From positions 1 through 34,561 of the forward strand of contig CAZWYB010000002.1 of NCBI GenBank assembly GCA_964637745.1: DNA of 34,561 nt, given 5' to 3'. This stretch comes from an uncultured Pseudomonadota bacterium (lineage in GTDB: Bacteria; UBA10199; JACPAL01; GCA-016699445). The notes under the pieces were generated by a model. That model did not search any database. It saw nothing but the letters and a program-made list of their open reading frames with translations, and was not told the DNA's origin. Shown piece by piece: positions 4,888 to 22,139 of the stretch (the first letter of the stretch is position 1; the number at the start of each line of letters is the position of its first letter). A program made the position numbers and the translations under genes.

Positions 4888-7014
4888 TTAACGTGGTATT
4901 TTTTCGAATGAAGGGCACCCCCATCCGACCGGAATCGAGACCGAGTGTCCGCTGTAATCAACGCCCGAGAACGTACACGTCAGATCCGTATCCACGGCAT
5001 TCCCCTTGATGTAAAAACCCTGAGGAGCATAAGAGTCTGGGTTGAAGCCCGTTGGGCTCGTCCTGTCGATCCATTCGACCATCTCAAAACTGTGCCCCTT
5101 GCAATCCACGTGGAACTCCTTGAGGTTCTGAACCCGAATGCCCTGAGCAAAATCGGTGGAGTCGTAGGTCCAACTGCCGGAACCGGCTTCAAAAGTTCCG
5201 GGATGATAGTTTGTTCCATGGCAATATTTGTCATAAGATCCATCGATAAATTTAAATGCCGGGTTATCCGCATCGCTATTATAAGGAGCCTCAATGCGAT
5301 TAGAGTAAATCATGGGAGCCCCTATGATTCTTACCTGCCAAGCCCAATGGTTATGATCACGTACGGCTCCATTGACGGGAATCATTTCAGAATGCCCCGA
5401 GAGAGGAATGTCAAGGAAGCTGGTCCAGTCGTTGAACATGACATAGGTGATCCCCGCCGTGGTCTCACCGCTCAAGACGGTCACTGCGTGGATGGTCTCT
5501 TTGATATCAAAGGGCCGACCTACTTTAACCACAAAATTATGGGTCTCCGGACCCGTTCCCCAAGTGCCGTTCTTGCAAATGTCGTCTCCGCAAATCAATT
5601 CAGTGTAAGGAGCACCCAGCGAAAGCTTGAAGATACTTTTCGCCGTATTGTGCATTCCATATCCTTGCACATTCATGGTGATCGGATCCGTGTCCGAATA
5701 GTCGCAGGCGTAAGACGCGTGGCCGCTGCCGTCTTTCCTAAAGTCATTGGTCCCGCTTTCTACGCAGCTCTTTCCTCCGATCACAGCTTCTGAAGTCGCA
5801 TTCACATAATCAAAACTCACATGAATCTTGCTGTCGACCTTGATCATCGCCTTCACATCCGTCGTAATCTGAACGTGATCCGCCACGACCTGATCACAGA
5901 CGGACCTGGACGTCCCGTCCTCATCCACCACCACCAGGCACACATCGCCGCTGTGGACCAAACTCCGCGTGTAGATCTCTCCCGATGAAGCCGGCAGATC
6001 GATGCGGCAGTCCGGATTCGGCTCGTCCGAGGCCGGCGTCAGGCCACTGATTATGGCGCTCGCCGCCGGATTGGTCATCTTCTTGTAACCGGAATACTTT
6101 CCGGAAGAAGGCGATGAGGCCGGCGTCGCGTAGGGAGCCGCCGGTTTGCGCCACGTAAAATCGCAGTCGTCATCGGTGGCCGTGTTGCCGTTATCGCAGA
6201 CTTTCCCTTCCAGATATTTTTCGTATTCGACATGAACGGGGGTCGAGGGATTCGGATCGATCTCGACGCCATTCGCGGCAGTCACGAGATACCGTTTGTC
6301 GAGGGTCAACTTGCAACCTGTATCCGTCGCCGTTCGATTGAAAAGATTTCCGGCCAGATAAATCGCCTTGACCTTGTCGTCCGTCTTCCATGTGATCTTC
6401 ACCGTTTGTTGTTTAGAGGCCCCGGCCATATCTTCGACTTTGAGATCGAGAGGTGTTGGAGCCGGAGCTCCGGTTGTGCCGGTGGCGCCTGTCGATCCCG
6501 TATCGCCGGTGGCCCCCGTGGAACCCGTCGAACCATCGGCAGCGGGTGTTTCGGAACTTCCCGAGTCGCCCGTGGGTGCGATCACGTCGCTGTCCGTTGC
6601 GCCGGCGCTTCCGGCGCCGGCCATCAGGACTCTCTTCACGGTCATCTTAGAAATCAGAATCGCGTTGCCGGATCCGCCTTGCGACACCACGCGGACATCC
6701 ATCTGATTGCCACTGATCATGGGGAAACTGGGCATGACGAACGTAACGTTGTCGGAACTGCCGTCGTATTGAGAAGCCACCGGAATGCCATGTGTGTTGC
6801 CGGTTCCTTCGATGGAAACGGTATCCCCATCTTCGAACGAGAGACCGGACACCGAACAGGTCACCGTGTCGCCCATCGCCACTGGATTCGGAGTGCAGTT
6901 CCCACCGGCGGCCGATCCCGTCGCTGAAGAGCCTCCTTTAGAACCTTTAGAAGAAGAGCAGGCAACCGTAAGCGTGGAAGCGAGGATGAATAGGCCTATG
7001 ATAATACGTTTCAT
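4888..7014 (-). CDS. Secreted lipoprotein, paralog F of a cysteine-rich family (function unknown)
   Basis: ATG 7014 has GGGGGA 6 nt upstream. The N-terminus has a signal peptide plus lipobox (MKRIIIGLFILASTLTVAC). It shares FNRTATDTGCKLTLDKRYLVT, GTNYH, STDFAQGIRVQ and the C-terminal CTFSGVDYSG...GWGC motifs with the 11075-13210 protein. Confidence 0.8.
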   Translation of the reverse strand: MKRIIIGLFILASTLTVACSSSKGSKGGSSATGSAAGGNCTPNPVAMGDTVTCSVSGLSFEDGDTVSIEGTGNTHGIPVASQYDGSSDNVTFVMPSFPMISGNQMDVRVVSQGGSGNAILISKMTVKRVLMAGAGSAGATDSDVIAPTGDSGSSETPAADGSTGSTGATGDTGSTGATGTTGAPAPTPLDLKVEDMAGASKQQTVKITWKTDDKVKAIYLAGNLFNRTATDTGCKLTLDKRYLVTAANGVEIDPNPSTPVHVEYEKYLEGKVCDNGNTATDDDCDFTWRKPAAPYATPASSPSSGKYSGYKKMTNPAASAIISGLTPASDEPNPDCRIDLPASSGEIYTRSLVHSGDVCLVVVDEDGTSRSVCDQVVADHVQITTDVKAMIKVDSKIHVSFDYVNATSEAVIGGKSCVESGTNDFRKDGSGHASYACDYSDTDPITMNVQGYGMHNTAKSIFKLSLGAPYTELICGDDICKNGTWGTGPETHNFVVKVGRPFDIKETIHAVTVLSGETTAGITYVMFNDWTSFLDIPLSGHSEMIPVNGAVRDHNHWAWQVRIIGAPMIYSNRIEAPYNSDADNPAFKFIDGSYDKYCHGTNYHPGTFEAGSGSWTYDSTDFAQGIRVQNLKEFHVDCKGHSFEMVEWIDRTSPTGFNPDSYAPQGFYIKGNAVDTDLTCTFSGVDYSGHSVSIPVGWGCPSFEKIPR
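6463..6534 (-). repeat. Gly-X-Thr triplet run (8 triplets, GSTGSTGATGDTGSTGATGTTGAP) inside paralog F
   Basis: Read directly from the translation. The DNA has period-9 and period-3 low complexity. Confidence 0.7.
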
Positions 7015-7169: not shown

Positions 7170-7177
7170 AAAGAGAG

Positions 7178-8506
7178 TTACATGGGGCATTTGGGAGAAC
7201 CCGCCGGGGCCCAGGCATTGATACCGTTGGTCAGAGCTTGCGCCCCCGTCAGATCGACGTTCATCCAATAGAGCTGGCCCTTGGGGGCTGGGTTCTGCAC
7301 CATCGGGTTTCCCGTGGGAACGATGTAGAAAATCTTACGGCCGTCGCAGGACCACGATGGAGAAACGGCATCCGACTGGGTTTCCTGACAATTCTGGAGC
7401 TTGGCGGTCGTCAGGTCCGAAGGACTCGGGACGGAAAGGTCGCAGACATCGATGCGATAGATCGTGTTGTTCACATTGTTGGGATCCTTCTTGGAAACGG
7501 AATAAGCCACTTTCCCACCATAGGGTGAGAAGGACGGTTCGGTATGCGTAATGAGGTCATTGGGACCGGGATTGGATATTGGATTTGGCGTGAGGTTGAA
7601 AGCATCATCTAAGGTGCCGTCGATCTTATTGATCCAAACATCGATTTCCGAGTTCGCGCTCTGACTGTGCCCCATGGAAAAAAGGATCAAGTTATACAAA
7701 GGATCCGCAGGATTCGTCACGGGAGACGCGGCCACGCCGAAATAATATTCGTTCGGCGTATTGTTCGTCTTTCCCGCGTCCCGCACGACCGTCGACGCAT
7801 TCCCATCGATCGTAAATTTTCTTAAAGTGCAACCGCCGGTGCTGTCATCGGCACTGGCGAGCACGTGGGCGTTATCCGCAAGAGGGACCGCAAAAAATGT
7901 GATCAAAGAATTTTGGACGGATCCCCACGCCGTCGGTTTCCCGATCGGAGCGGTCAAAGAGTTTTTAATATCCAACGAGGCCACGCTAAATCCGTTTTGT
8001 CCGTTGATCTGAACCGAGGCCGAATAAAAGAGTTTCGACGCGTCTGGTGTCATGGCGAGAGTATTCCAGAACGGAAGAGCCATACCGCCGTTTGCGATAA
8101 AGTTTGACAACGGCTTCGGTGCGGATCCTTTCGTATCGCCCCAAAAAAGATTGGCGATCGTCGTGTTGTTGTTCGCGGGATCGACCTTCACGAAGGCGTA
8201 TTCATAATACGAAGGAGCGGGGGGCTGCGTGGTTCCCGATGCTCCGGTGCTACCCGTGTCGCCCGTCGTGCCTGTATCTCCTGAGCCGCCGGTGCCGGTG
8301 GGAACGATTGCCGTCCCCCCTGAGCCTCCCGTCGCTCCCGTCGTCCCTTTCGCACCCGATGCGCCGCTCTTGTTCCCTCCGGCCGTGATGGTATTGCCGG
8401 CGTTCTTGGAACCGCCGCAACCGGAGACGGAGATCATCAGCCCTTGAAAGCCCAGGGCGATTGCAAGCAACAAGACCACGGAGGTTTTCGTTCGATTTGT
8501 TTTCAT
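7178..8506 (-). CDS. TolB/PD40-like beta-propeller lipoprotein
   Basis: ATG 8506 has AAGGAG upstream. A signal peptide ends in the lipobox VSGC. It is followed by a Gly/Thr-rich linker and then PD40-like blades (PSFSPYGGKVAYSV, SPSWSCDGRKIFYIV). Confidence 0.8.
   Translation of the reverse strand: MKTNRTKTSVVLLLAIALGFQGLMISVSGCGGSKNAGNTITAGGNKSGASGAKGTTGATGGSGGTAIVPTGTGGSGDTGTTGDTGSTGASGTTQPPAPSYYEYAFVKVDPANNNTTIANLFWGDTKGSAPKPLSNFIANGGMALPFWNTLAMTPDASKLFYSASVQINGQNGFSVASLDIKNSLTAPIGKPTAWGSVQNSLITFFAVPLADNAHVLASADDSTGGCTLRKFTIDGNASTVVRDAGKTNNTPNEYYFGVAASPVTNPADPLYNLILFSMGHSQSANSEIDVWINKIDGTLDDAFNLTPNPISNPGPNDLITHTEPSFSPYGGKVAYSVSKKDPNNVNNTIYRIDVCDLSVPSPSDLTTAKLQNCQETQSDAVSPSWSCDGRKIFYIVPTGNPMVQNPAPKGQLYWMNVDLTGAQALTNGINAWAPAGSPKCPM
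8228..8368 (-). repeat. Gly/Thr-rich low-complexity linker with Gly-X-Thr triplets (GDTGTTGDTGSTGASGTT)
   Basis: Read from the translation of the TolB-like ORF. Its composition resembles the linker of paralog F. Confidence 0.6.
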
Positions 8507-8530
8507 CTCAATTAAGCTCCTTTTTTATCT

Positions 8531-10948
8531 TTATGGGGCTTGCCAATTGCTGGATGCCGCCTGGTGACAGAATCCAGGCCATGCGTTTCTCCCCTCGCAA
8601 GGCGTGCAATTCCAAGGGATCGTTTGGTCCTTGGACTTTCCATCAAAAAATGTGGCTGTAATCGTGCAAGATCCCGTGTGCTCTCCGGCCGATTCACCTT
8701 TCAGAAGATAAGCCGTCTTTTCGAACATGTCCGCCTTATTGGTCAAATCGCAAGTGGACGCTCCTCCCTTATAGGTGGAGCAAATCTCGGTCTTACCATC
8801 CACCGAATTGAGGGACAGGAAAGCACCATTTTGCTTCCCGCAATCGATCGTCAATCCCGTCACGCCCTTCAAGTTCACCGCATAACTGAAGTCGACATAT
8901 TTATGATGATAGACAGGCAGGTCGTCACAGCTCCCAAAGGTGCTCTCCATGAATTTATCGCATGGGTCGTCAGCGTAGGCATCCCCATAGCACTGATTGT
9001 TTGCCCCCACCTTCGCCGTGGAATCCAGTTCGAAGGCCTCGGCCTTGGACGGATCCGGCGTCCAATCCCACGTCTTCACCCAATCGGGGTCGGTGACATC
9101 GTAAACGGACATCTGTTCCGTCTTGCGGAGGCCGAAGATAAAATGCATGCAGTTCGGCTGCAGAAAAAGCTTCGTGCGGTATTTGGCGAACCCCTGAGTC
9201 TGATCGACGACCCATCCGTCGGCGGAAGGATTTTTAATGAATTCGCTTTCGCTGGCTTCCTTGTAGGAACTGCAGGAGTAGTCCTGCTTGCCGCCGGGCC
9301 CTCCGTTATTGAAATCGAACCAGGCGTCGACCCACGGCACGTGATCCGTACTTCCGAACTGCGACCATTGATTGGTCTGGGGATCCTGCTTCCAGAGACT
9401 GACGTCGCGGGTCACGGACCCCGTCATGTCGACAAGCCCGCCGTCGCCGCAATGTTGATCTGCGTTCTGACACACCTGGGTATAGGTGACATGGCCTTGA
9501 CCATCAACACTCGCCTTATAGGTCCCGCCGGGAATCAAAGTCGCGATCGCTTTGGTCAAAGAGACCTTGAGGGAGGCTTTGGCGTCTTCTTTCGAGGTAA
9601 AACCGGGACACGTCACCGTATAGACCTGGTCCGATTTCTCGAGCGGCGCCGAGAAGGAGCACTCCACATCGTAGGCCGTGTTGCCGCCGGTGGGAAAAGG
9701 CGTCAGCTTGCAGAACTGCCCCTTGTCACCCTCCACGGTCGCCGGCTTTGACTGAGCGGCGCAGGCAAAATGGATGAAGACCGACTGCTTGTAGGGATGA
9801 GGCGACTTGGAAAGCTCGATCGTCGGGTCCGTCGCAAATTTTGTCGCCTTGATCTCCACGTCTTGGGTCTTCACCGTCCAGTTTTGGTCGCCCTTCGCCC
9901 GGTAGGCGATCGTGTACATCGCCTTGTTTTGGGCGTTCAAGGCCTTCGGATCGATCTTCGTGTAAAAGAAATCGGCGGGCTTGTTCAAACCCTGCTGCTG
10001 GTCGACCACATCCACGCGGCACAGGGGCACGGGAGGATTGTTGGGTATTTGGGAGCAGGCCGAGCCGTCCTTGCACTCCATCCCGTTGGCGTAGATCCCC
10101 CACTGGCTCCAAGACGGCATGTTGGGCGTGATGACAGTCTTGCCGTCCTGCGTGACCGCCATGCTGAGACAATTCTGATATTGCTTGTTCGGATCGGGCA
10201 CGGAGACGAACGGCCCATAAACATAGGCCTTGAAGACCGCTCCCTGGCACGACCATTTCATCTGCACGACGCCGTCGCTGTTGGACACCACGTTGGTCCC
10301 GCTGACGTCGCACGTCGGAGGTCCCGCGGGCTGCGGCGGCTGGGGCGGCGTGACGCACGTCCCGCCCTGACAGGTCTGTCCGGCCGCGCAATCGGAGTCC
10401 TGTGTGCATTGAGGCGGAGGATTGTTTTGCGCGAGGCATTGTCCGTTGACGCATGTCTTTCCCGAGGCGCAGTTCGAATTGTCCACGCACTCGGGCGTCG
10501 GCTGGGGATTCGGAGTCGGCGGCGGCGTCCCTCCCCCAGCCCCCGTTCCTCCGGAGGATCCCGTCACGGGGTCCAAATGGAATTTGCAAAGATTTTTCTG
10601 ATTTCGGGTGCCGGCTCCACAGGTGACGATATAATCGCCCGCCGGCATGCCCGGAACCGTCGGACTGACGACCCCCCCTTGGGCATCGCCGCATTGGAAG
10701 GCGTAACTGTCGTTGGCACCTTGAGCCGGATGAAAAAAGCCGGTGCAGTCTTGATCGCAGGCGCCGATTTGAACCTGGATCACCCCGCCACGGGCCACGG
10801 GGCCGGTCGCATAACAATCGGACAAACCGCTCAGATCTTTGGACGCCGCTCCGCCTTGCGAGTTCGCCCCTGGCTTACTCGCACATCCCCCCAAACACCC
10901 CAAAGACACGAACAGACAGAGAACGGCCGCAATAACATTGCGCGTCAT
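8531..10948 (-). CDS. Cysteine-rich lipoprotein, paralog E (function unknown)
   Basis: ATG 10948 has GGGGGGAG upstream. The lipobox is LGGC. The N-terminal domain (ASKDLSGLSDC...CKFHLDPV) is about half identical to that of 11075-13210. It has two CxxDxxCxxGxxCxxGxC modules (10352-10492) and the C-terminal motif CTITATFFDGKSKDQTIPWNC. Confidence 0.85.
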   Translation of the reverse strand: MTRNVIAAVLCLFVSLGCLGGCASKPGANSQGGAASKDLSGLSDCYATGPVARGGVIQVQIGACDQDCTGFFHPAQGANDSYAFQCGDAQGGVVSPTVPGMPAGDYIVTCGAGTRNQKNLCKFHLDPVTGSSGGTGAGGGTPPPTPNPQPTPECVDNSNCASGKTCVNGQCLAQNNPPPQCTQDSDCAAGQTCQGGTCVTPPQPPQPAGPPTCDVSGTNVVSNSDGVVQMKWSCQGAVFKAYVYGPFVSVPDPNKQYQNCLSMAVTQDGKTVITPNMPSWSQWGIYANGMECKDGSACSQIPNNPPVPLCRVDVVDQQQGLNKPADFFYTKIDPKALNAQNKAMYTIAYRAKGDQNWTVKTQDVEIKATKFATDPTIELSKSPHPYKQSVFIHFACAAQSKPATVEGDKGQFCKLTPFPTGGNTAYDVECSFSAPLEKSDQVYTVTCPGFTSKEDAKASLKVSLTKAIATLIPGGTYKASVDGQGHVTYTQVCQNADQHCGDGGLVDMTGSVTRDVSLWKQDPQTNQWSQFGSTDHVPWVDAWFDFNNGGPGGKQDYSCSSYKEASESEFIKNPSADGWVVDQTQGFAKYRTKLFLQPNCMHFIFGLRKTEQMSVYDVTDPDWVKTWDWTPDPSKAEAFELDSTAKVGANNQCYGDAYADDPCDKFMESTFGSCDDLPVYHHKYVDFSYAVNLKGVTGLTIDCGKQNGAFLSLNSVDGKTEICSTYKGGASTCDLTNKADMFEKTAYLLKGESAGEHTGSCTITATFFDGKSKDQTIPWNCTPCEGRNAWPGFCHQAASSNWQAP

Positions 10949-11074: not shown

Positions 11075-13210
11075 TCAGCAGCCATGCGGGCTTTCGCTTG
11101 CCCCACAGGTCCACGAAGGGTTCAAGGTGCCGGCTTCTTTTCCGTCATAACCGATGGCGGTAAACGTGCATTCGATATCCGTATTCGATTGATGCCCCTT
11201 CAGCTCAAAATATTGCCAATCATAGGAACGCGGATCATTGGCGTCGAAGAAGACATCGTGATCCAGGCCGTCGGGACAATTCACCCGAATGTCTTTAACG
11301 TGCCTCGCCTGGAACCGGATCCCATAATCGGTGCTGCCGTATTCATACCAACACTCATTGTCCCAGGTAATGTCGCTGTTGCATCCGCTGAAGCCGACAT
11401 ACTTGCAGCTGTGGTGATTGGTCCCGCTGCAACTCCCCCACCAGGTGCCGTCGATCACGTCGAAGCGCACGTTGAAGGGTTTGTCGATCTTTTGGGGAGC
11501 CGTCACGTGGGAGCCGTCGTAGTCGTCAATGATCAGGATCCATTGCGTGGAGTAGTAGTTTCTAGTCATCAGGACGGAGCCGGAGATGGCCTCGCCCGCC
11601 TTCACGTCCACCTTCGGATCGGTCAGATCAAACGACACCGTTCCCCAAAATCCGAAAGGGTTTGAGGACGGATAAAACGTCATCTTCTTGGCCCCCGGAA
11701 TCGTCACATCCGATCCGCTCACCTTATGGAAGACGCTTCCCGCCTTCTCCTCCACCCAACAAGACCGCGAGAACCTTCCCACCATGGAGATATAGCCGGA
11801 CAGATCCAGGTCTTGAGGCGTCGTTCCTCTTTCCGTGGTGTAGTAACCGCCCTCCTGGAGCTTAGCCTGGATGCCTCCGCAAACGAGCTTATAAGTCTTC
11901 GTGTCGCTGCCTCCGGCGCCCGTGGCCGCGATCGTGAACTGGGGCGGAGAGGACGGCGTGAACGCGCAGGCGTTACGCAGATAGCTTCCTTGGCCGTCCA
12001 ACGGTAGCGGGGGGGCGGGCGGCTCGGCGGTCGTACAACCGGTCACCGCGATCGCCGATGCATTCAAGTAATCAAAACTGAGCGTCGCCTTTGGCTCCCG
12101 TTCGCTCGTCAGCCCTACCTTGATGTTTGAAACGGACGGGGCCGGGATATCGAAGTCCTTCTCATCGAACGTCCACACCCCGTCCTTGCCGTGGGCCGCG
12201 AGGATGAATTTGCCCTGGGGAACCAACAAGTCCGTGTAGAAAACGCCCGCGAGCCCGGCCGCTGTGAGATCGATCTTGCAGATCCGGCCTTCGCCCGCGG
12301 TCGGCGCGTAATTTTTACAATTGTCGGTCGAGGTATCGCACTTCTCGCCTTCGGCGAATTTTTTATATTCCGTAGCCCAATTTGGCATCACGGTGGTGAC
12401 GTCGTTGCCGACGTCGGTCGTCACGAGGTAGCGCGTGCCCGTCAGGACGCAGTCCGAATCGGCGACCGTGCGGTTGAAAGGCCCGTAAATATAGGCTTGG
12501 TCGGCATTCTCGATCTTGTAGTTCAGACGGATGGCGTTGAAACGCGCGGTCGGAGAGACGACCTTGCCCGTCGCATCGGGGCCCGTAACGACGAATTTCG
12601 CCGTCGCCGGAAGAGGCGGAGGCGGAACGGCGCAACTGCCGTCCGGTTTGCAAACCTGACCCGAGGGGCAATCGCCGTCGGCATGGCAGACGAAGGGCGG
12701 CGGCGAAGGAGGCGCCACGACCTCCACGCAAGAACCGCCCTGGCATTTCTTGCCCGCGATGCAATCCGAGTCTGCCGCGCATTCGGGGGTCGGAGGAGAC
12801 GGCGGACCGGCCGGGCCCGTATTTCCCGTCGCTCCTTGAGAGGCCGTCACCGGACTCAGATGAATTTTACAGAGAGAGATTGTCGCACCGTCTTTGGCGC
12901 CGCATGTCACCGCGTAATCCCCGGACGGCAGATTGGGGACCGTCACTCCCCCCTGAACGCTGTCGCACAAAAACGCAAAGGAGTCCGGTGCCGATCCGCT
13001 CAAGGGATGAAAAAAACCCGTACAATCCTTCTCGCACTGATCGACGGAGATCGGGACCGATCCTCCGCGAACGACCTCCGCTCCGGAGGCACAATCCGGA
13101 GCGGCGTTTAAATCTTTTGAAGCCGAACCCGTACCGGAACTCCCGTTGGAAGAGCCGCAACCGGCGGACAACAATAGAAAAAAAACGGCGATAATGACGT
13201 TCCGCATCAT
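11075..13210 (-). CDS. Cysteine-rich lipoprotein, paralog D (function unknown)
   Basis: ATG 13210 starts the ORF and the lipobox is LSAGC. It has the N-terminal domain ASKDLNAAPDC...CKIHLSPV, two 4-Cys modules (12632-12784) and the C-terminal motif CTFTAIGYDGKEAGTLNPSWTC. Confidence 0.85.
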   Translation of the reverse strand: MMRNVIIAVFFLLLSAGCGSSNGSSGTGSASKDLNAAPDCASGAEVVRGGSVPISVDQCEKDCTGFFHPLSGSAPDSFAFLCDSVQGGVTVPNLPSGDYAVTCGAKDGATISLCKIHLSPVTASQGATGNTGPAGPPSPPTPECAADSDCIAGKKCQGGSCVEVVAPPSPPPFVCHADGDCPSGQVCKPDGSCAVPPPPLPATAKFVVTGPDATGKVVSPTARFNAIRLNYKIENADQAYIYGPFNRTVADSDCVLTGTRYLVTTDVGNDVTTVMPNWATEYKKFAEGEKCDTSTDNCKNYAPTAGEGRICKIDLTAAGLAGVFYTDLLVPQGKFILAAHGKDGVWTFDEKDFDIPAPSVSNIKVGLTSEREPKATLSFDYLNASAIAVTGCTTAEPPAPPLPLDGQGSYLRNACAFTPSSPPQFTIAATGAGGSDTKTYKLVCGGIQAKLQEGGYYTTERGTTPQDLDLSGYISMVGRFSRSCWVEEKAGSVFHKVSGSDVTIPGAKKMTFYPSSNPFGFWGTVSFDLTDPKVDVKAGEAISGSVLMTRNYYSTQWILIIDDYDGSHVTAPQKIDKPFNVRFDVIDGTWWGSCSGTNHHSCKYVGFSGCNSDITWDNECWYEYGSTDYGIRFQARHVKDIRVNCPDGLDHDVFFDANDPRSYDWQYFELKGHQSNTDIECTFTAIGYDGKEAGTLNPSWTCGASESPHGC

Positions 13211-13285: not shown

Positions 13286-14662
13286 TTAAGGGGATGCGTG
13301 AGGGGCGGGCAGGATCCAGTCCGCATGCCCGAACCAGGGATAATCGACCTCGGCGAGATTGATATTGGGGTCGATAAGGGCCTTGGGGAGGCCGAAGTTC
13401 AAGGTGACGGAAGTCTCCGCCTTGATGATGGGGCGCTCCATCCCTTCCGACTGCAGCTTTCTTTTCAAAAATTGAGCGTATTGCCAGATCAGATCCGGTT
13501 TGACGGCCATTTCGTCGATCTGAGAGGGGATCAGGTCCTCGCTCAGATCAATGTCTTTCGTTTCATTTGTCTTAGGGTCGGTCAAAGTCAGACGGATCAG
13601 ACCTTGTTTATGGCGCAGTTTCATCCGCCACGAAAAATAATGCCCCTCTTCCGTCCAGGCGACATCGCCCGCAAAGAGCCAATGCCGTAAAGGGATCAGG
13701 ATCTGCAGCAGGAGATACAGTGAAATCAGGCAGACGGCCAAACTTCCGCCTACCCTTCCCTCCGGCGATCGTTCCCTCGGAATAAACGGAGCGGACGAGC
13801 CGAAAGCTGACCGCAGGCGACCGAAGAAGCGGCGCGGCGTGTCGGGTTCAAGAAAGACGACCGTCGCGGCGATCATCAAGTAAGGAAAGACGCCGATGTG
13901 AAAGAGCCAATTATTCGTCACGTTGAAAAACAGGACGCCGCAAACGGCGAAGGGCCGGGTCTTCTTCCAGCAGAGAAGAAATCCGATCGTCAGATCGAAG
14001 AGGAGCCCTCCGTAACAAAAGAACCAGACGCCCTTCTCCACCCCCAGGAAACTGGCCAGGGTTGAGGTCTCTTGAAGCTGTTGGAGCCAATGCCGGATCG
14101 GCTCCCCATGCAGCCAATCGCGGTTCAGCTTCGCTACGCCGCCGAAGAAATAGACGAGAAAAAATTGGGCGCGAAGGAGAAAGACGTTCCAGAACGGGAC
14201 CCGCCCCGTCGCGACTTGGGGACGACGCCATCCGTCGAGGGAGGCCCATCTCTGGGCGCCCATCGGAATCAACAAGAGAGCGATCAGCGCGGTCAGATAA
14301 TAATGGTTGTTGTAAAGGGTCTTATCGAGAAGAAAAAAGTACAGATAGGAAATAAAAAAAACGACGCCGGCGACCCGATAAAAAAGTCCAAGACAGAGGC
14401 AAAGCGCGGCCAGGGCGATGACCGCTAGATGCCAGTAGATGGCGTTTCCCGGCAAAGGACGCACAAAGGGAAGAAAGGGAAAATGAAAAAAGGGATGGGA
14501 AAAGTACGGCGCCTCATGGATCCAGAATCGGAAGACCTGGTCCACCATGATCGCGCCAAAGAGGATGCGGAAGACGGCCAACGAAGAGGCGTCGACGGGG
14601 CGGTTTAAGAGGCCATTCCATTTCTTAAGGCGTGTGGCCGTCGTTGTGGAAGCCGTCGTCAT
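13286..14662 (-). CDS. Vitamin-K-dependent gamma-carboxylase-like polytopic membrane protein (HTTM/VKGC family)
   Basis: It aligns along its whole length with human GGCX as I remember that sequence: LNRPVDASSLAVFRILFG, FLLDKTLYNNHYYL, VPFWNVFLLRAQFFLVYFFGGVAKLNRDW, WTEEGHYFSWRM, PDLIWQYAQFL and VTLNFG..ALIDPNINL. The track ORF starts at 14728. I chose ATG 14662 because it cuts the overlap with the upstream gene from 104 nt to 38 nt. Confidence 0.85.
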   Translation of the reverse strand: MTTASTTTATRLKKWNGLLNRPVDASSLAVFRILFGAIMVDQVFRFWIHEAPYFSHPFFHFPFLPFVRPLPGNAIYWHLAVIALAALCLCLGLFYRVAGVVFFISYLYFFLLDKTLYNNHYYLTALIALLLIPMGAQRWASLDGWRRPQVATGRVPFWNVFLLRAQFFLVYFFGGVAKLNRDWLHGEPIRHWLQQLQETSTLASFLGVEKGVWFFCYGGLLFDLTIGFLLCWKKTRPFAVCGVLFFNVTNNWLFHIGVFPYLMIAATVVFLEPDTPRRFFGRLRSAFGSSAPFIPRERSPEGRVGGSLAVCLISLYLLLQILIPLRHWLFAGDVAWTEEGHYFSWRMKLRHKQGLIRLTLTDPKTNETKDIDLSEDLIPSQIDEMAVKPDLIWQYAQFLKRKLQSEGMERPIIKAETSVTLNFGLPKALIDPNINLAEVDYPWFGHADWILPAPHASP

Positions 14663-17171
14663 CGCAGTGGAATTTGAATGTATAATTGGTGGTCGGCGGC
14701 GTGCGGTCCTCCATGGCGCACCAGCCATTCACGCAGGTTTGCCCGGCTCCGCAACCCGAATCGCAGGTGGAATTCGTCGATCGCCAATAATGCCCGATGA
14801 GGGTGCACGAAAACTGATCGCCCCAGTCGTCGTCCTGCCCCCCTCTATGGAAGTCAGCAGCCATCGTGCCGTCGAGAGAAGGTTCGAGGTTCGGCTGCTG
14901 GCTGACTGTCGGAGAGCCCTTGTCGCAGGCGGGTTCGATGTGGGTCAGGTTCGTCGCATGCCAATGGAGGGTGGCGGTGACGTGAACGTCCGAATCGTCA
15001 TTGCAATCGCCACCGTCGCCGTTGACCGTATAAAAACCCGGCCCTTCGACATACTCAACCGTAAGCGTCCCCGGCTGGGGCGGCGGGGTCGGAAAGGGAG
15101 CGTAGATGTCGTTCGCAGCCGGAAGAATGGAGCCATCGAGATCCTTCACGACGAACTTATAGCCCGTGCAGGGACTGTTGTTCCTGGGGAGCTTGACGTT
15201 TTCAAGCTTCAGGGTCGAACCGAAGACGCTGACGTCTCCGTTGTTCCCCGTGGGCAAAGCGCCTTTCCAAGGGAAAATGTTGAACACCCCCGAGGTACCG
15301 CAAACGTTGAACTTGTTTCTGTCGAAGGCCTGGATCTCGAGAGACCCAACCCAAGGAACGTCTTTTTGCGCGACCTGATCGTAGTTTCCGGAATTATCGT
15401 CCCTCTTCTTGCTGATCGTGGCCTTGCGCAGGACGCCTCCCGAAAAGGAAAGTTTGCCTTGCTTGCTGCACTGATTCCAATTCCCGCAGGCGTTCGCCGC
15501 CCCGTTCGAGCAATCACAATGCCCCTCATTCCCGTCGAGAGCTCCGTTCTGGAATTGAGGGTATCCGGAACTGGGAGGATCCAACTCCACTTTGTAAGTT
15601 GCATCCTTGGAATCAGCGATACCTAATCCCGTCGCCCAGAATTCGATAACCTGGCTTTTGCTGTTCAAAGGACAATTCATCGTAAAAGACGCCAGATTTC
15701 CAAGCTTATCCGGAGTGTTTCCCGTCGGTGGCTCGCAACCCATGGGGGGCATGATCGGCACCGAAATGTTTTTCCCCGTGGCTGTCACTCGGATCTTCGG
15801 CGCATCGGTCTGTACATCGACGTTTGCGGTGAACGTCACGGGATCCACATCCACGGGATCCGAGTCCACCGCCTTCTCCAAGGTTCCGGCCTTCACATAG
15901 AGATGAAACTTCAATTTGTCCGCCAAAACCCGCGTATAGACAAACCCGCTCTTGACGAAGTGACCGGCCGCGTCCTTGGTCGTCATCACGCAAGCAGGAG
16001 GTTGATCACAAAGAAAGCAGGGCGTCGGCGGCGTGTAGCCGTGGCAATTTGAGCCGTCGTCTTTGCACTTCACCGCCGAATCCATATAAGTCTTCACCGC
16101 ATCATACGGGGCCGTTCCGGAAGTCATATCGCCCCCCAAGTTGGCCGCATTGGACTCGTTGCCGTTCACCAAAAGATACCGCGTATGCCCCAGCCCCCCT
16201 GCGAACATATCGTCGGGCTTGCCCTTGCATTCATCGCCCGGCGTGCCGCCGTCTATCGTAATCCGATAGAAACCGTCCGACCAGATCTGCAGATCGGTAA
16301 TGTCCTTGGCGTTGACCCCCGTCACGTTCCAGCTCACCTTGACCAAGCCCAGCCGCGTGTCGAATTTCTTATCGACGGTGAGGGTCGCATCAAAGGTCCC
16401 CAAAGGCTCGCAGGTCCCGGCGGTACAAGTCGTTTTTGACGAACAATCCGCATCGCTGGTACAGGACTGGGCCACGCAATGTCCTGTCGGAGAGCAGGTC
16501 GTCTTATCCCCCGTCGTACAATCCGCGTCCGTCACGCACTCCAAATCCACGCAGCTTCCCGCCTTGCATTTCTTTCCCGTAATGCAATCCGCGTTCGTCG
16601 TGCACGCCACGGGGCCGGCCGGCGCTGGCGTGCAGGTCCCGGACATGCATTTGTCGCCTGTAGGACAATCGGTATCGCTGGAACAGGTCGCCGTAGAACC
16701 CGTGCCGCCCGTTCCTCCCGCGGCGATCACGCACGAGCCACCCTGAAGGACTTCTCCGGGCGGGCAAGACGTCGTTTGCTGCGTCGGGGGCTTGATCGTG
16801 AATTGATCCGCAAGGATGGTCCTATGGCTGTCGTCGCAATTACCGCCTCCGCAGCAAAAAAGAGTCCCCGTCCCCTGGATCGACGAGGGCATCTGGATAT
16901 CGACGGGCGTATCTTTTGAGTTTGAGGAATCGGGACATTGATCCAAGTAAAATTGCTGTTTGTTCTTTTCGAAAAAGACCGTGCAATTATCGGGGCAGTC
17001 CTTGAGGTTGCATTTGACGGTCGTTCCGACGGCGGCCTGATTGGCATCGCAGGTCGTCAGCGCGCCGAGGTTTTTTGTACCCTTCCCTCCACCACCGCCA
17101 CCTCCCCCACCACCGCAGGAGCTAAGGAGCAAGAGACCGACGAAGAGAGGAAGGATGGCTGGACGGCCCAT
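14625..17171 (-). CDS. Cysteine-rich lipoprotein, paralog C (function unknown)
   Basis: ATG 17171 has AGGAGG 7 nt upstream (the track ORF starts at 17192). The lipobox LSSC is followed by a 10-residue poly-Gly run. About six 4-Cys modules lie at 16410-16766. The family C-terminal motif is present but interrupted by one extra Cys module. Confidence 0.85.
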   Translation of the reverse strand: MGRPAILPLFVGLLLLSSCGGGGGGGGGGKGTKNLGALTTCDANQAAVGTTVKCNLKDCPDNCTVFFEKNKQQFYLDQCPDSSNSKDTPVDIQMPSSIQGTGTLFCCGGGNCDDSHRTILADQFTIKPPTQQTTSCPPGEVLQGGSCVIAAGGTGGTGSTATCSSDTDCPTGDKCMSGTCTPAPAGPVACTTNADCITGKKCKAGSCVDLECVTDADCTTGDKTTCSPTGHCVAQSCTSDADCSSKTTCTAGTCEPLGTFDATLTVDKKFDTRLGLVKVSWNVTGVNAKDITDLQIWSDGFYRITIDGGTPGDECKGKPDDMFAGGLGHTRYLLVNGNESNAANLGGDMTSGTAPYDAVKTYMDSAVKCKDDGSNCHGYTPPTPCFLCDQPPACVMTTKDAAGHFVKSGFVYTRVLADKLKFHLYVKAGTLEKAVDSDPVDVDPVTFTANVDVQTDAPKIRVTATGKNISVPIMPPMGCEPPTGNTPDKLGNLASFTMNCPLNSKSQVIEFWATGLGIADSKDATYKVELDPPSSGYPQFQNGALDGNEGHCDCSNGAANACGNWNQCSKQGKLSFSGGVLRKATISKKRDDNSGNYDQVAQKDVPWVGSLEIQAFDRNKFNVCGTSGVFNIFPWKGALPTGNNGDVSVFGSTLKLENVKLPRNNSPCTGYKFVVKDLDGSILPAANDIYAPFPTPPPQPGTLTVEYVEGPGFYTVNGDGGDCNDDSDVHVTATLHWHATNLTHIEPACDKGSPTVSQQPNLEPSLDGTMAADFHRGGQDDDWGDQFSCTLIGHYWRSTNSTCDSGCGAGQTCVNGWCAMEDRTPPTTNYTFKFHCDDDGFHNDGHTP

Positions 17172-17297
17172 ATCAAGACCTCCTGAAATCAACCCCGGGT
17201 AGTTGTTTTCGGCATGTTACTGGCATGCAGTTTCGTCATCGGTAATTTAAGATGTCATCTTACCAGAACCGAAGGTGGATGAGTGATATTTTTTCAC

Positions 17298-19703
17298 TTA
17301 ATGCCTCGGATGGACTGCGCAGTTGTCATCGTTACCAGGGCATTCTTCCGAGCGCGTTCCAAGGCCGAGGCGTCCATGTCGGAATGTCGGCTCATGATCC
17401 CAACAACTGAACCAAAAACAGCTATGGGACATGACGCAAATTCTTGCGTCACAGTCGGAATATCCATAGGGAAGGGATACGTCGGGATACGAGACAGGAT
17501 CCCACGATTCGCAAACGAGTTGGCAATTCCTTCCCTCGGCTATCTGCCGGTCATCGATGGCGCCCGACCTCGTTTGATAGGTGGCGACGCCGTCGGTTTC
17601 GGAGGGATAGGAAATCGTGTGCCCGCAGGTGGAATACAGCCGTTTGCAATTCTGCGCGTTCGACCAATTCCAATGGTAACGCCTGGCATAAAGCGTGCCC
17701 CAGTTGTCCGTGTTGTCGCATTGATTGCCGCCGGGCCAACCGCCCCCGGCTCCGCCGTTATGGTCGGGGGTATATTGGCAGGCGGCGTTTTGCCACTCGG
17801 AGTTGTAATGCGAGACGGCCGCTGTCCATCCCCGATCCATCGGGTCGGCGCCTCCCTCCAACGACAAATGCGGAGGGAAAGGAAAACTTTTCAGCGACGG
17901 ATCCGACTGAAACAGACTTCCATCCGTATCATGTCCAACTATGGCATATTGCGTGCAATGGTGGGTCCTTCCAAGCCGGACCGGGCCGATCGGAGTGGTC
18001 GTGATCGAGGTCACCACATCACCGGCTCCACACTCCTCGGGAGGCCCATACCCTCCCCTCGTTCCAACCGGAGCAAAGGCCTTCACCTGAAGATCGCGGA
18101 CCCATGGGACAGTCACCGAGCTCTCATCGTGCCAGGATCCGTCATCCATGAGCTTGGAGACCGTACACGCGCGAGTGACGGAGGCATAGAAAGTGAGATC
18201 GACGGGCGTGTTGCAACTTTCCCACCAGTGATCCAAGGATGTCCCGGAGCACGACAACACGCCTCCCGGATCTCGCGCGCCGGGCGCGTAAATTTCGCCG
18301 CCGAGTCTTAAATTCGGTTGAGGGGCCTCGCAGTGGATACGGTATTGTTGCAACACGTTATCGGCGGTGTCCCCCATGGCCATAGCAACGATACTGACCG
18401 TCGCATCCTTTTGAAACGGACAACTTCCCGTGATGCTCGCCCGTCCGTCACTGGAGACGTCGTTCACCATGGTCGTCACGAGGCATCCCATGACCGCCAG
18501 GCGTTGAACAGTATGGGTCGCGTTCGCCTGCAACTCGATCTTGGGCTCGCGATCGCTCACCGTAACGCTAACGCCCGAGAACGACGGACGCTCCAGCGTG
18601 AATTCATGCGTCGTCGACCGCCATGTACCGTCCTCTCCTTGCGCCACCAGGGTATATTTCCCAGGCCACGCCAACTTGACGTAGAACGTCCCGCTCGCGG
18701 CCGACAGCTCCACGCGGCAGAAGGTGGCCGATCGATGCGCGTCGGGATGCCAATCGCGGCAGTTGCCGTCGGCTTCCACGCAGGCAGTCCCCGAATTATA
18801 AGGATGGTACGTGGCATAGACGGGCGCCCCTTCGACCAACGCATGCCCGTTCGGATCGGTCACGAGGCCTTCGTGCGTCGTACCGGTCACGGTCTCGCTG
18901 CAATCCGCCCTCGATGTGGGGAAATAGACGTATTTGGCCCGGAGGGTTCCTCCGCCTTGAATCTGGTAATTGACGTGTGCGAACCCGTAAAGATCGCGAA
19001 TGGCGTCGCTGCCGTCCAAAGAAACGCCGAAGGTCGTCGGCGTCGAAGACGCCTCGCGCACCCCGCAGGTGTGATCGGAGCGGCACACGTTGCCGCCCGT
19101 ACATTCGCTGTCGGCGTGGCAAGAGGTCGGCGTGGGTGTCGGCGTCGTCCCCGCCACACAGCTTCCACTGTGACAGACACGGCCGGACGCGCAATCGGCG
19201 TCGTCCACGCAGGTCGGCGTCGTCGCGCCGGGCGTGCTGTCCGAGGGGCGGATCTCCCCTCCTCCGCCTGCGGAGCACGTCCCCGCGCTGCAGGTCTGGC
19301 CGGCTCCGCAGTCGGTATCGGAGGAACAGGTTGAAGCCGCCCCGGGAACAATCTGGAAATTACGAGCGATCACAAAGGGCCCTTCCGTTCCGCGTCTCCA
19401 AATGAGATCGCCGGTGCCCGTCTGGGCGGGAAGCGTCAACGAAAGGCCGCGGTCGTTTTGATTGCAGTCGACAAAAAATTCCATCCGGCCTCGATCCAAA
19501 AAACAGCGGGAATCGGCGTCGAAATTGTCTTGAGGGCCGCATTGAATCGTCTGACCGGGTGTTCCCGTCGGAGGACACGAAGTCGCCGTTCCTTGAGGGG
19601 ATGTCGACGCCCCGCCGCTTTTTTTGGACGACGCGCAGGCGGCAAGACTGACGATGAATAAAAGAGCCAAAACGGCCCGGAATCTCGCAAGGTGGCACGC
19701 CAT
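17298..19703 (-). CDS. Cysteine-rich lipoprotein, paralog B (function unknown)
   Basis: ATG 19703 starts the ORF and the lipobox is LAAC. The N-terminal domain (CPPTGTPGQTIQC...FFVDC...GDLIWRRG..GPFVI) is clearly similar to that of 19824-22139. Three 4-Cys modules lie at 19065-19328. Confidence 0.85.
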   Translation of the reverse strand: MACHLARFRAVLALLFIVSLAACASSKKSGGASTSPQGTATSCPPTGTPGQTIQCGPQDNFDADSRCFLDRGRMEFFVDCNQNDRGLSLTLPAQTGTGDLIWRRGTEGPFVIARNFQIVPGAASTCSSDTDCGAGQTCSAGTCSAGGGGEIRPSDSTPGATTPTCVDDADCASGRVCHSGSCVAGTTPTPTPTSCHADSECTGGNVCRSDHTCGVREASSTPTTFGVSLDGSDAIRDLYGFAHVNYQIQGGGTLRAKYVYFPTSRADCSETVTGTTHEGLVTDPNGHALVEGAPVYATYHPYNSGTACVEADGNCRDWHPDAHRSATFCRVELSAASGTFYVKLAWPGKYTLVAQGEDGTWRSTTHEFTLERPSFSGVSVTVSDREPKIELQANATHTVQRLAVMGCLVTTMVNDVSSDGRASITGSCPFQKDATVSIVAMAMGDTADNVLQQYRIHCEAPQPNLRLGGEIYAPGARDPGGVLSCSGTSLDHWWESCNTPVDLTFYASVTRACTVSKLMDDGSWHDESSVTVPWVRDLQVKAFAPVGTRGGYGPPEECGAGDVVTSITTTPIGPVRLGRTHHCTQYAIVGHDTDGSLFQSDPSLKSFPFPPHLSLEGGADPMDRGWTAAVSHYNSEWQNAACQYTPDHNGGAGGGWPGGNQCDNTDNWGTLYARRYHWNWSNAQNCKRLYSTCGHTISYPSETDGVATYQTRSGAIDDRQIAEGRNCQLVCESWDPVSYPDVSLPYGYSDCDARICVMSHSCFWFSCWDHEPTFRHGRLGLGTRSEECPGNDDNCAVHPRH

Positions 19704-19823: not shown

Positions 19824-22139
19824 TTATTGCCAGGCACATTGGGCGGGCGGCTCAAAGTTGGGATTCCGTTTCGTCTGTAAACCGTTACCCGATCCCGTCG
19901 CCTTGCCGTCAGGACCATCCTCGTAACAACTGCACTCCCACTGTTTATGTGGGATGGACACCTCTACCCTCGTTCCGTCGTAGTAGACGGCCCAGAACTG
20001 GCAGGAGAAATCCTGTTTCCAATCGCTCCAATATTTGTTTCGGATTCCATCGTCCGTAATATTGGCGGAAGGCACCGGGATATCGGTCGAAAGGATACCG
20101 CTCTGAGGTCCGTAATTCTTAGGGTCGGGCTTATCCCATTTCGAATAAACGATGATGTCAATGTCCGGCGTCTTTTCTCCCCCCAGGGCCAAACGATCAT
20201 AGGTCGCAATTTCACAATGGTACGCAAAATAACTGAGATGCTGTCCGCTCCAGGACCAAGCAATCGATGAGGACCCGTCGAAACAGGAATGTGTATCCTT
20301 CAGGTTGAGCGTCGGACTCAGGGGAGAGGGAGAAATGCTGAAAGAAGGATTATAAGGATGGCTCACGGGGTCGCTTTGATACGTCTTCCCGTCATAATCC
20401 TTGGCGACGGCGACCCAGCCCGTATGGCCGTAATCCCGATCCGCGACGAACTCCCCATTCCCGTTTTTCTTGGTCACTTCCTCCTTGAGGATCCAAGGAG
20501 CGGACTGCGGCTTGTAATTCGGAGTGAAGAGCGTTTTCTTGGCCATGCTCTTATTTGCGGTCGTGGTACGAACGGAAGAAGGATCCGTCGCTGCATAAAC
20601 GGATAACGAATCCACCCAGACAACTTCCTTGGAGGCAGCCGGTTTGACGGAGACGCCGTCCTTCTGAATGTCATAGGTACGGGAAACAGTCGGATGGAAA
20701 TTGATGGTTCCCGGATAATCACAATTATCCGGATCGTTCGCGGCTCCCGTCCCGGAACACGTTCCCCCTCCCTCGTTCAAGGTCACCGCCGGTTTGTGGA
20801 GGACCACCGAGAACGTATGGGACACGGCATTCTTGGGATCCAAACCGGAAGCAGCGATACCGATCGTCATGTTCGTCGAGAGCAAGCAGGTCGCAGAAAG
20901 CGTGCCGGAACCGTCTTTTGACAACGAGTTGAGCGTGTATTGAATTGAGGGGCAACCGGTCACCGCCGGAACGCTGGAGACGCCCGTATAGGTCGCCTGC
21001 AGGAGGACCTTCGGCTCGTTATAGGACAGGGAGACGGCGGCGTCGACGGTCGGGATATCCGGCGTCAACGTCAGCTCCGCGGTCTTCGTCGTTCCCGCCT
21101 CATCCGTCGCCACGATCACGAACTTTCCGTTTGCAACCAGGAGCCGCGAGGCGAAATCGCCTGCCGCCAGGGGCTTCCCGTTTGCGTCGACCGGATTCAT
21201 CAGACACGTCGGCGCCGCAGGCGCACCGGCTGCCGGCGGGGAAAATCCCTGATAGCAATCATTGGCGTTGACGCACGGCTTGCCCGTGGTCAGACCTTTC
21301 GACTCGGCCTCCTGAAAATTCGTGGACGGCTGCGCCGGCGGAGTGGGAAGAGGTCCAAAATCCCCTCCTCCGGATTTCGCCGGATTGACCGTGAGCCATG
21401 ACGCCGTTTTATCGTCGCCGCAGTTGGTATCCTTATCGCTCCGGTTCCAGGGGCCGACCAAGGCCACCGATTTCAAACCCTGTCCCCCTTCGACGTGAAA
21501 CGTAAAGGTGTAAAGGCCCAATCGGGTTTTGGTCTCTTCTTGGGCCTCGAGAGTCACTTTGAGTTCTTGAGGGGTTCCCGTCGTCGGCGAAGTCGTCCCG
21601 GTCGAACCGGACCCGGATGGAGAAGGCGTCCCGGAAGCCACACACGTTCCGGAGGTCTTGTCGCAAATCCTGCCGCTGGCGCAGTCGGAATCGCTCAAAC
21701 AATTCACCGTGCTCTCCGTGGGAGTCACGGGTTGTCCTCCGGAAGCGGCGGGAGCCGAAGCCGAAGCGGAGGCCGGAGCGATCGTGATCCCCTTTTGAAT
21801 GACGAAGGGCCCCGCCGACCCTTGGCGGAAGATCAAGTCCCCCTTGCCCGCCAGGGCCGGAAGCGTCACTTGAAGACCTTTATCGGTTTCCTGGCAATCG
21901 ACGAACAGCTCTCTCTGCCCCTGATCCAAGAAACACTGGCTGTCGCTCGTGAAGTTGTCGGGTTTCGCGCAGAGGATCTGTTCGCCCGGCGTCGCCGTCG
22001 TGGGACAGGCCGAGAGCGATGCCGTGCCGCCACCGACGGGCGAAGGCCCCTTGTTGGCGGAACCGCCGCCGCAGGAGGCGGCAAACACCAGCACACACGT
22101 CAGGACCAAGACTTTTTGAAACGGGCTATAAAATCTCAT
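19824..22139 (-). CDS. Cysteine-rich lipoprotein, paralog A (function unknown)
   Basis: ATG 22139 starts the ORF and the lipobox is AASC. The N-terminal domain is homologous to paralog B. One 4-Cys module lies at 21642-21701. The C-terminal motif is FSCQFWAVYYDGTRVEVSIPHKQWEC. Confidence 0.85.
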   Translation of the reverse strand: MRFYSPFQKVLVLTCVLVFAASCGGGSANKGPSPVGGGTASLSACPTTATPGEQILCAKPDNFTSDSQCFLDQGQRELFVDCQETDKGLQVTLPALAGKGDLIFRQGSAGPFVIQKGITIAPASASASAPAASGGQPVTPTESTVNCLSDSDCASGRICDKTSGTCVASGTPSPSGSGSTGTTSPTTGTPQELKVTLEAQEETKTRLGLYTFTFHVEGGQGLKSVALVGPWNRSDKDTNCGDDKTASWLTVNPAKSGGGDFGPLPTPPAQPSTNFQEAESKGLTTGKPCVNANDCYQGFSPPAAGAPAAPTCLMNPVDANGKPLAAGDFASRLLVANGKFVIVATDEAGTTKTAELTLTPDIPTVDAAVSLSYNEPKVLLQATYTGVSSVPAVTGCPSIQYTLNSLSKDGSGTLSATCLLSTNMTIGIAASGLDPKNAVSHTFSVVLHKPAVTLNEGGGTCSGTGAANDPDNCDYPGTINFHPTVSRTYDIQKDGVSVKPAASKEVVWVDSLSVYAATDPSSVRTTTANKSMAKKTLFTPNYKPQSAPWILKEEVTKKNGNGEFVADRDYGHTGWVAVAKDYDGKTYQSDPVSHPYNPSFSISPSPLSPTLNLKDTHSCFDGSSSIAWSWSGQHLSYFAYHCEIATYDRLALGGEKTPDIDIIVYSKWDKPDPKNYGPQSGILSTDIPVPSANITDDGIRNKYWSDWKQDFSCQFWAVYYDGTRVEVSIPHKQWECSCYEDGPDGKATGSGNGLQTKRNPNFEPPAQCAWQ

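Follow-up and report, generated by a model that had tools for sequence, protein, structure and literature searches.

Do bacterial enzymes of the vitamin-K-carboxylase (VKGC) type act on proteins encoded beside them? VKGC-type enzymes occur in hundreds of bacterial species from many phyla, for which the cited literature reports no native protein substrate; the only bacterial VKGC substrate named there is a small-molecule intermediate (that of MloH). The question is posed by a 34,561-nt stretch of DNA from an uncultured Pseudomonadota bacterium (assembly GCA_964637745.1, contig CAZWYB010000002.1; hereafter the window), in which an array at positions 4888-22139 places a VKGC-type gene among genes for cysteine-rich lipoproteins. 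An earlier note had described this array as eight co-directional minus-strand genes, seven of which encode a signal peptide and lipobox and six of which encode diverged paralogs of a family that it did not recognise, and had proposed that the enzyme matures or modifies its neighbours. From the prfB end to the acs end we label the genes H, G, F, E (the enzyme), D, C, B, and A. We find that the six paralogs (A, C, D, F, G, and H) form a new family that is rare, present in no curated library, and endowed with a well predicted multi-domain Ig-like fold. Comparative support for the proposed link between family and enzyme is real but limited: their adjacency recurs in one lineage, at a fixed position and with tight spacing, and is missing at most family loci and at all enzyme loci sampled elsewhere. 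Given that the enzyme keeps the same position in related genomes, the co-encoded lipoproteins are candidate bacterial protein substrates for the VKGC enzyme class.

The open reading frame (ORF) listing fills the array with eight consecutive minus-strand ORFs, and seven of the eight products, inspected by eye, have at the N-terminus a hydrophobic stretch closed by a lipobox-like x-x-[GAS]-C (TVAC, VSGC, LGGC, SAGC, LSSC, LAAC, and AASC), both as previously described. From the Lgt/Lsp/Lnt lipoprotein pathway, an lnt gene is encoded nearby at 23387-25003. All-versus-all BLASTP joins the six large proteins (A-D 3e-18, C-D 2e-44, D-G 1e-33, G-H 1e-47, F-G 2e-24) at pairwise identities of 20-37%, and a profile of their globular parts finds all six at E-values of 1e-155 to 1e-182. 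Across the 17 kb no DNA-level repeat is present except one chance-like 31-nt pair, which indicates that the duplications are old, as the earlier note had supposed. The same observation led us to reject recent duplication and gene conversion as explanations for the paralogs.

The common architecture that had been claimed (an N-terminal domain, zero to six cysteine mini-modules or a Gly-X-Thr linker, a motif-bearing core, and a C-terminal hairpin) is likewise visible in the alignments. The lipobox is followed by an N-terminal Cys-containing domain (matching IPT/TIG in two relatives by Pfam), a linker, a core of ~500 aa carrying the motifs FNRT (FNR), RYLVT (RYLV), CRIDL, and FYTR, and a C-terminal Cys hairpin of the form C-[TQ]-[FLI]...[YFW]-D-G...C; CRIDL, FYTR, and the C-terminal C.F...YDG...W.C are not the motifs of any described family. 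Counted by strict regular expression, the linker contains two 4-Cys mini-modules (C..D.DC..G..C..G.C) each in C, D, F, and G, one in H, and none in A, rising to three in G and about 5-6 in F when looser copies are included, while A and B carry G-x-T linkers in their place. These modules match TIGR04201 Myxo_Cys_RPT and DUF7107, a likeness that is restricted to the linker and passes the curated cut-off in G alone (28.1 bits against a TIGR04201 cut-off of 25). The number of Cys after the lipid Cys is always even (A 16, C 38, D 30, F 48, G 40, H 22), as expected for fully disulfide-bonded extracytoplasmic proteins.

Word-indexed protein searches, whether with D or with a family profile of 26 sequences, recovered nothing beyond the query, probably owing to low-complexity words crowding the candidates, and exhaustive HMMER searching was required. 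Family alignments either offered no stretch conserved enough for a contig search or gave patterns that tblastn did not confirm, in genome and metagenome contigs alike. Searched against 1.84 billion representative proteins at E<=1e-3, a profile of the globular parts identified 73 family proteins, six of them from the window. The 67 remaining representatives match down to E 1e-4, most over their full length, and are typically 650-800 aa proteins that likewise start with a lipobox; family genes are present in the loci designated L001, L004, L006-L011, L013, L095, and L096. A Pfam scan of 66 members returned no model over the ~500-aa core, and NCBIfam contributed a repeat model only, leaving the core uncovered. 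For D, AlphaFold2 modelling from 66 sequences gave an almost wholly beta structure with a mean pLDDT of 81.2. Foldseek comparison of this model against the PDB returned Ig/FN3/MG strings only, at TM-scores of 0.09-0.20 (titin, MAG, alpha-2-macroglobulins, the Sap S-layer protein, and repeat adhesins). As predicted, then, D is a string of Ig/FN3-like beta-sandwiches, a fold class that suggests an extended envelope or surface protein and assigns no function. Identity with a known family was rejected given that Pfam and NCBIfam match the linker modules only and the fold search yields generic Ig-like strings, and the family is as unrecognised as the earlier note had found it. An alpha-2-macroglobulin (thioester) reading was also rejected, there being no CxEQ in any paralog and no A2M Pfam match. 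The six-paralog array shows the family expanding in this genome.

The enzyme, on the other hand, is a member of a known family, and its description as vitamin-K-carboxylase-like is confirmed. E matches PF05090 (HTTM) at 3e-80 (270 bits against a cut-off of 27.7; profile positions 1-258 of 259) and PF22777 (VKGC lumenal domain) at 1.2e-43 (149 bits against a cut-off of 27.7; profile positions 4-150 of 152), and thus has the same two domains as human VKGC, to whose cryo-EM chains it aligns by phmmer at 5e-59 across residues 15-452. The equivalents of the human catalytic residues are conserved, N159, H160, K218, W223, D263, N290, and F299 all being identical in E, which ends at approximately human residue 504. 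Residue roles were read from PMC12647623 and PMC13486548, according to which H160, F299, N159, and W223 trap CO2 and bind the substrate carboxylate, Y395 binds the substrate Glu, and the 393-404 segment is required for gamma-carboxylation. Judged from these alignments, E is a full-length bacterial VKGC-type enzyme; with its lumenal domain and near-full-length match it is unlike the truncated epoxidase form of giant viruses (PMC13486548). E contains no CxxC, all six of its Cys lying within hydrophobic segments, and a thiol-oxidoreductase reading was rejected for lack of that motif. Its gene overlaps the 3' end of the upstream paralog F, as had been noted, by 38 nt when translation begins at ATG 14662 (which yields the 458-aa product on record) or by 104 nt when it begins at 14728.

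Family loci in other genomes were read on the longest contigs available, and each was scanned with the family hidden Markov model (HMM) and the window proteins; tallies refer to 11 family loci with usable flanks. L013 belongs to GCA_036274695.1. One lineage shares with the window the backbone phoH / 7TMR-HD / ybeY / lnt / prfB / [slot] / acs / lysS, at identities of 73-76% for prfB, ~72-75% for lysS and acs, and 49-58% for Lnt. In L001, L006, L008, L011, and L095, all of which have this prfB, a family gene always comes next, in some cases with 1-2 small genes intervening (a toxin-antitoxin pair in L011/L012; a 379-aa ORF and MazE in L008). The slot ends at acs wherever the contig reaches that far, with lysS beyond acs in the window, L001, and L006, and it also contains PemK/MazE pairs and nucleotidyltransferase-like ORFs. 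Its contents vary (Table 1): where the window has HTTM, relatives have a MauG-like di-haem cytochrome c peroxidase, accompanied in L008 and L013 by a UbiA prenyltransferase-FAD_binding_4 fusion and in L006 by a squalene-hopene-cyclase-like protein, while L013 has HTTM as well.

A best-hit table resolves three ortholog groups in the slot. F-type genes (window F, L001_p1, L011_p2, L006_p1, L008_p2) are always immediately upstream of the enzyme cassette, A-type genes (window A, L011_p3, L008_p3, L006_p2) are always last before acs, and D/G-type genes (window D, C, G, and H) resemble members at other genomic positions. These fixed positions point to an ancestral arrangement of F-type gene, cassette, and A-type gene, to which four D/G-type copies and B have been added here. 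Outside the prfB slot, the family genes of L004, L007, and L010 adjoin a gene for a 1330-1430-aa Ser/Thr kinase-GAF-sigma54-activator fusion (485-4633, 14271-18560, and 14064-18047, respectively). Two unannotated 270-380-aa ORFs separate the two genes in L007 and L010; in L004 the fusion gene is directly upstream of the family gene on the other strand, and a 109-aa ORF is found downstream of the family gene. This arrangement hints at sigma54-dependent control of the family.

HTTM genes are adjacent to family genes at four of the 11 loci. At three of these HTTM shares its strand with an F-type gene that it directly follows (38-nt overlap in the window, 5-nt gap in L001, 77-nt gap in L011/L012), while at the fourth, L013/L014, it is flanked by family genes, and either HTTM or MauG is found at five of the six prfB-slot loci. 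We tentatively favour, at somewhat below an even chance, a reading in which the enzyme acts on the co-encoded lipoproteins, those of F-type first. A competing explanation, which we rate only slightly lower, is that the slot is a hypervariable island after prfB in which the lipoprotein family is the usual resident and HTTM, MauG, UbiA-FAD, toxin-antitoxin, and ATPase genes come and go with no action on the lipoproteins; the VKGC-like enzyme would then have a general substrate encoded elsewhere or act on the quinone pool, as in most other bacteria. The toxin-antitoxin pairs and nucleotidyltransferase-like ORFs housed in the same slot suit this explanation. It is also favoured by the survey from the enzyme side (one genome per species), which yielded at least 535 VKGC-type loci (HTTM plus lumenal domain) in phyla including Chloroflexota, Acidobacteriota, Verrucomicrobiota, Nitrospinota, Planctomycetota, Bacteroidota, and Myxococcota. 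Among the best 80, all from other phyla, none has a family member, MauG, or UbiA-FAD nearby, and clustering of the neighbours revealed no dominant partner, no neighbour family occurring at more than 8 of the 80 loci. In favour of the link, on the other hand, HTTM has no recurrent neighbour elsewhere, so that its adjacency to the family is lineage-specific and not a general habit of the enzyme.

Several further observations weigh against action of the enzyme on its neighbours. Within the sequence available, HTTM is missing at seven of the 11 family loci; two of the seven have a MauG-like di-haem peroxidase at the same position (one with the UbiA-FAD fusion), and no HTTM, MauG, or UbiA-FAD was found within 10 kb of the family genes at L007, L009, L010, L096, and the short L004. 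L008 and L011 are colinear, with 79-90% DNA identity outside a single segment, which comprises the last ~160 codons of paralog 2 and, beyond these, HTTM in L011 but MauG and UbiA-FAD in L008. This clean cassette swap leaves L008 with paralogs near those of L011 and without HTTM, which argues that the family functions and persists almost unchanged without the enzyme. When 22 family proteins were aligned to the family HMM, no column had Glu in at least half of the HTTM-linked members and no Glu was specific to those members; each window paralog is poor in Glu and rich in Asp (18-29 Glu versus 49-77 Asp), the conserved acidic columns are Asp and are conserved equally in members without HTTM, and no Gla-like or propeptide-like segment was found in the family. 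In the enzyme itself, human Y395 aligns to a His, with a Tyr one position later, and the 393-404 segment is only partly kept (W390, T391, S398, W399, and M401 are retained; G393, D400, and H404 are lost). All HTTM-linked loci may moreover derive from one ancestral insertion and hence not be independent observations. Promoter and terminator scans gave counts equal to shuffled expectation and therefore say nothing on operon structure. In family members at several other loci (L004, L009), Glu and Asp are about equally numerous.

Set against a mere passenger are the same position and orientation after an F-type gene in three loci that have diverged to 52-54% identity in HTTM and about 52% in Lnt (across linked loci HTTM identity is comparable to the 49-58% of Lnt, and pairwise HTTM identities are star-like, being 52-54% inside the lineage and to outsiders alike), the placement of the enzymes between family genes and not at the island edge in five of the six cassette loci (window, L006, L008, L011/L012, and L013, with L001 as the exception), and the joint presence of HTTM, MauG, and UbiA-FAD among the family genes of L013. 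The link drawn in the earlier note therefore stands in part: adjacency recurs within one lineage, and HTTM and the family co-occur at four loci of related genomes, but most family loci lack HTTM and sampled enzyme loci of other phyla lack the family. The absence of HTTM from seven of the 11 loci and the L008/L011 swap indicate that it is no obligatory maturation factor. The lack of a conserved Glu weakens a classical gamma-glutamyl reading and is compatible with modification at a few non-conserved sites or of Asp, as in MloH. A facultative, lineage-specific modification of the lipoproteins by the HTTM enzyme is plausible. The breakpoint of the swap lies inside paralog 2 (L011 9041-11229 versus L008 7761-12766), whose last ~160 residues are completely different; L011 paralog 2 has a 'G-type' C-terminus (C.L.C.S.D...YGY..C..C), as do window G and P0130.

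On the favoured reading, the array is an expanded cluster of rare, lineage-restricted, disulfide-rich lipoproteins diversifying through old duplication in a variable slot after prfB, with an F-type gene, an enzyme cassette, and an A-type gene at its core. In each protein a lipid anchor is followed by an N-terminal Ig-like domain, then by a flexible linker built of knottin-like 4-Cys modules or G-x-T repeats, and finally by some five beta-sandwich domains. Such a build would suit an adhesin, a surface layer, or another extended protein of the envelope or cell surface. The active site and lumenal domain of E would, from its homology to human VKGC, face the periplasm, the extracytoplasmic side on which its secreted neighbours would be found. 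Using reduced menaquinone and O2 to make a strong base, the enzyme would modify one or more of the presumably co-transcribed lipoproteins while these remain anchored in the inner membrane, with the F-type protein as the foremost candidate and carboxylation of an acidic residue as the most probable modification. Such a modification would be facultative, adjusting the properties of the proteins without being required for them to fold. A fuller version, which is unlikely as a whole, envisages a menaquinone-dependent system in which Asp/Glu of the F-type lipoprotein, and perhaps of its paralogs, is carboxylated at the periplasmic face of the inner membrane to give Ca2+- or mineral-binding surface proteins, with MauG and UbiA-FAD as alternative or complementary modifiers of the same family. 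Less probable again is that HTTM, the MauG-like peroxidase, and the UbiA-FAD fusion together constitute a periplasmic module based on quinones or prenyl lipids in place of a carboxylation system. Such a module might consume quinol, O2, or peroxide, or supply a prenyl-linked donor, and would so aid oxidative folding, cross-linking, or glycosylation of the Cys-rich lipoproteins. The three enzymes do stand together in L013, MauG and UbiA-FAD share the same cluster position in L008, and L006 has CCP_MauG with a squalene-hopene-cyclase-like protein instead of UbiA-FAD. The 16-48 disulfide-forming Cys of the paralogs, the fusion of some HTTM relatives to a DCC thiol-disulfide oxidoreductase domain (P0103; bioRxiv 10.64898/2026.08.19.745780), and the proposal that viral VKGC-like domains are epoxidases coupled to other enzymes (PMC13486548) also fit such a module. 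The window, however, has HTTM only, with neither MauG nor UbiA-FAD, and E lacks a CxxC, keeps the CO2-trapping and carboxylate-binding residues listed above, and retains the lumenal domain that is absent from the truncated viral epoxidases (PMC12647623, PMC13486548).

Comparison with known systems puts the proposed modification of the lipoproteins in context. With 458 aa, E is without the C-terminal ~250 residues of human VKGC and differs from it further at Y395 and in the 393-404 motif; no Gla domain or propeptide is recognisable in its neighbours, and no VKOR gene is visible in the window. The Leptospira VKGC ortholog, like E a bacterial member of this enzyme family, reportedly has epoxidase activity and no carboxylase activity. 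Its gene is noted in PMC4555120. A precedent for action on a specific substrate is MloH, the bacterial VKGC ortholog of malonomycin biosynthesis, which carboxylates an aspartyl, non-Glu substrate of its own gene cluster (PMC12647623; bioRxiv 10.64898/2026.08.19.745780). That substrate is a polyketide-peptide intermediate, whereas the neighbours of E are 700-850-aa lipoproteins. A further precedent is offered by SdpA/SdpB/SdpC, in which a membrane protein, SdpB, that we take to carry an HTTM domain is encoded beside a signal-peptide-bearing secreted protein that needs it for maturation. SdpA and SdpB are required to process SdpC in Bacillus subtilis (PMC6818787); SdpC gives rise to a 42-aa toxin, and the system contains no lipoproteins, lumenal VKGC domain, or paralog array. 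Multi-Ig envelope proteins (A2M MG-domain lipoproteins, the Sap S-layer protein, and large repeat adhesins) resemble the paralogs as strings of beta-sandwiches, some of them lipid-anchored, and furnish the best Foldseek matches, but they show no sequence similarity to the paralogs and differ in the low TM-scores and missing CxEQ given above. What sets the present lineage apart is that it couples a VKGC-type gene, repeatedly and in an operon-like manner, to one secreted protein family, providing a concrete, clonable candidate substrate, while near-identical loci with and without the enzyme constitute a natural control. Were the carboxylation reading true, a native protein substrate would for the first time be known for a bacterial VKGC ortholog.

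Table 1. Features of the window and enzyme cassettes and slot contents in related genomes (fam, family gene; slot contents in the order given by the loci).
Feature	Position	Strand	Description
Paralog H	19824..22139	-	771 aa, D/G-type; first in array, adjoins prfB; lipobox AASC; family HMM 4.5e-138
Paralog G	17298..19703	-	801 aa, D/G-type; three 4-Cys mini-modules; variant C-terminus C.L.C.S.D...YGY..C
Paralog F	14625..17171	-	848 aa from ATG 17171; F-type; most mini-modules; 48 Cys
Enzyme E	13286..14662	-	458 aa; HTTM membrane domain and VKGC lumenal domain; alternative start 14728 gives 480 aa
Paralog D	11075..13210	-	711 aa, D/G-type; protein chosen for structure model
Paralog C	8531..10948	-	805 aa, D/G-type; D is closest paralog; family HMM 2.2e-95
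Lipoprotein B	7178..8506	-	442 aa; outside family; two PD40-like motifs, G-x-T linker
Paralog A	4888..7014	-	708 aa from ATG 7014; A-type; G-x-T linker, no mini-modules
prfB (release factor 2)	22197..23321	-	conserved left border of slot; 73-76% identity in relatives
acs (acyl-CoA synthetase)	1608..3569	+	conserved right border; 72-75% identity to L001, L006, L008, L011
AAA ATPase	3577-4752		between acs and A in window
lnt	23387-25003		in window, prfB side of array
Cassette enzymes, L008	8565-12259		position held by HTTM in window
Cassette enzymes, L013	6256-9975		position held by HTTM in window
Cassette enzymes, L006	12039-15685		position held by HTTM in window
Slot, window			H, G, F, HTTM, D, C, B, A
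Slot, L001			fam, HTTM
Slot, L011/L012			PemK, MazE, fam, fam, HTTM, fam
Slot, L008			fam, fam, UbiA-FAD_binding_4 and CCP_MauG on other strand, fam
Slot, L006			fam, squalene-hopene-cyclase-like protein and CCP_MauG on other strand, fam
Slot, L095			one fam
L013			fam, fam, UbiA-FAD (opposite strand), CCP_MauG, HTTM, fam
L014			HTTM, then fam

The remaining lipoprotein of the array, B, had been labelled TolB-like, a label that did not hold. B scores 21 bits against TolB models with cut-offs of 343 (TIGR02800) and 405 (PRK01029), covering only ~70 residues, and reaches E 0.0067 and 16.8 bits against Pfam PD40, below the cut-off of 20.9; with no sequence match in the PDB either, TolB identity was rejected. 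Its single-sequence AlphaFold2 model is unusable (pLDDT 32). B contains two PD40-like motifs, PSFSPYGGKVAY and PSWSCDGRKIFY, both of which can be aligned with a PD40 protein encoded upstream of the HTTM gene in L002, and 'PD40-repeat-containing' is the most that can be said of B from its sequence. In L002 (8211-11860; GCA_974054335.1, an unrelated genome) 26 nt separate this PD40/Tricorn-type beta-propeller gene from a downstream VKGC-type gene whose product is 51% identical to E. BLASTP with the L002 protein and with B revealed no other propeller-HTTM pairing in 80 other HTTM loci. Residues 183-203 of A (730-aa ORF numbering) and 73-93 of B form a near-identical low-complexity linker, GSTGATGDTGSTGA[ST]GTT, and this G-S/T-T-G linker is shared despite B being outside the family.

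Two start sites in the array merit comment. The longest ORFs of A (from 7080) and F (from 17192, TTG) put extra residues ahead of an ordinary signal peptide, and for this reason 7014 for A (MKRIII...) and 17171 for F are the likely true starts. The prfB-side flank of the array comprises prfB, lnt, a histidine kinase, a 7TMR-HD protein, and phoH, and the other flank comprises the AAA ATPase, acs, and lysS. The prfB gene has the classic programmed +1 frameshift site, CTT TGA C, at 23250-23256 (minus strand) after a 25-codon leader from ATG 23321, the listed 340-aa ORF from 23219 being only its downstream frame. A PAS-histidine kinase gene (25371-26921, minus strand) lies between the 7TMR-HD gene and an ORF at 24928-25374 that is probably ybeY; L001, L006, L011, and L095 have no kinase at this position. 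Finally, positions 30765-33518 (plus strand) encode a secreted protein of 917 aa that is extremely rich in Cys and has no relation to the lipoprotein family; it matches Dictyostelium CTDC repeats (1e-20), disintegrin-like repeats (2e-20), and, weakly, an SdrD B-like domain.

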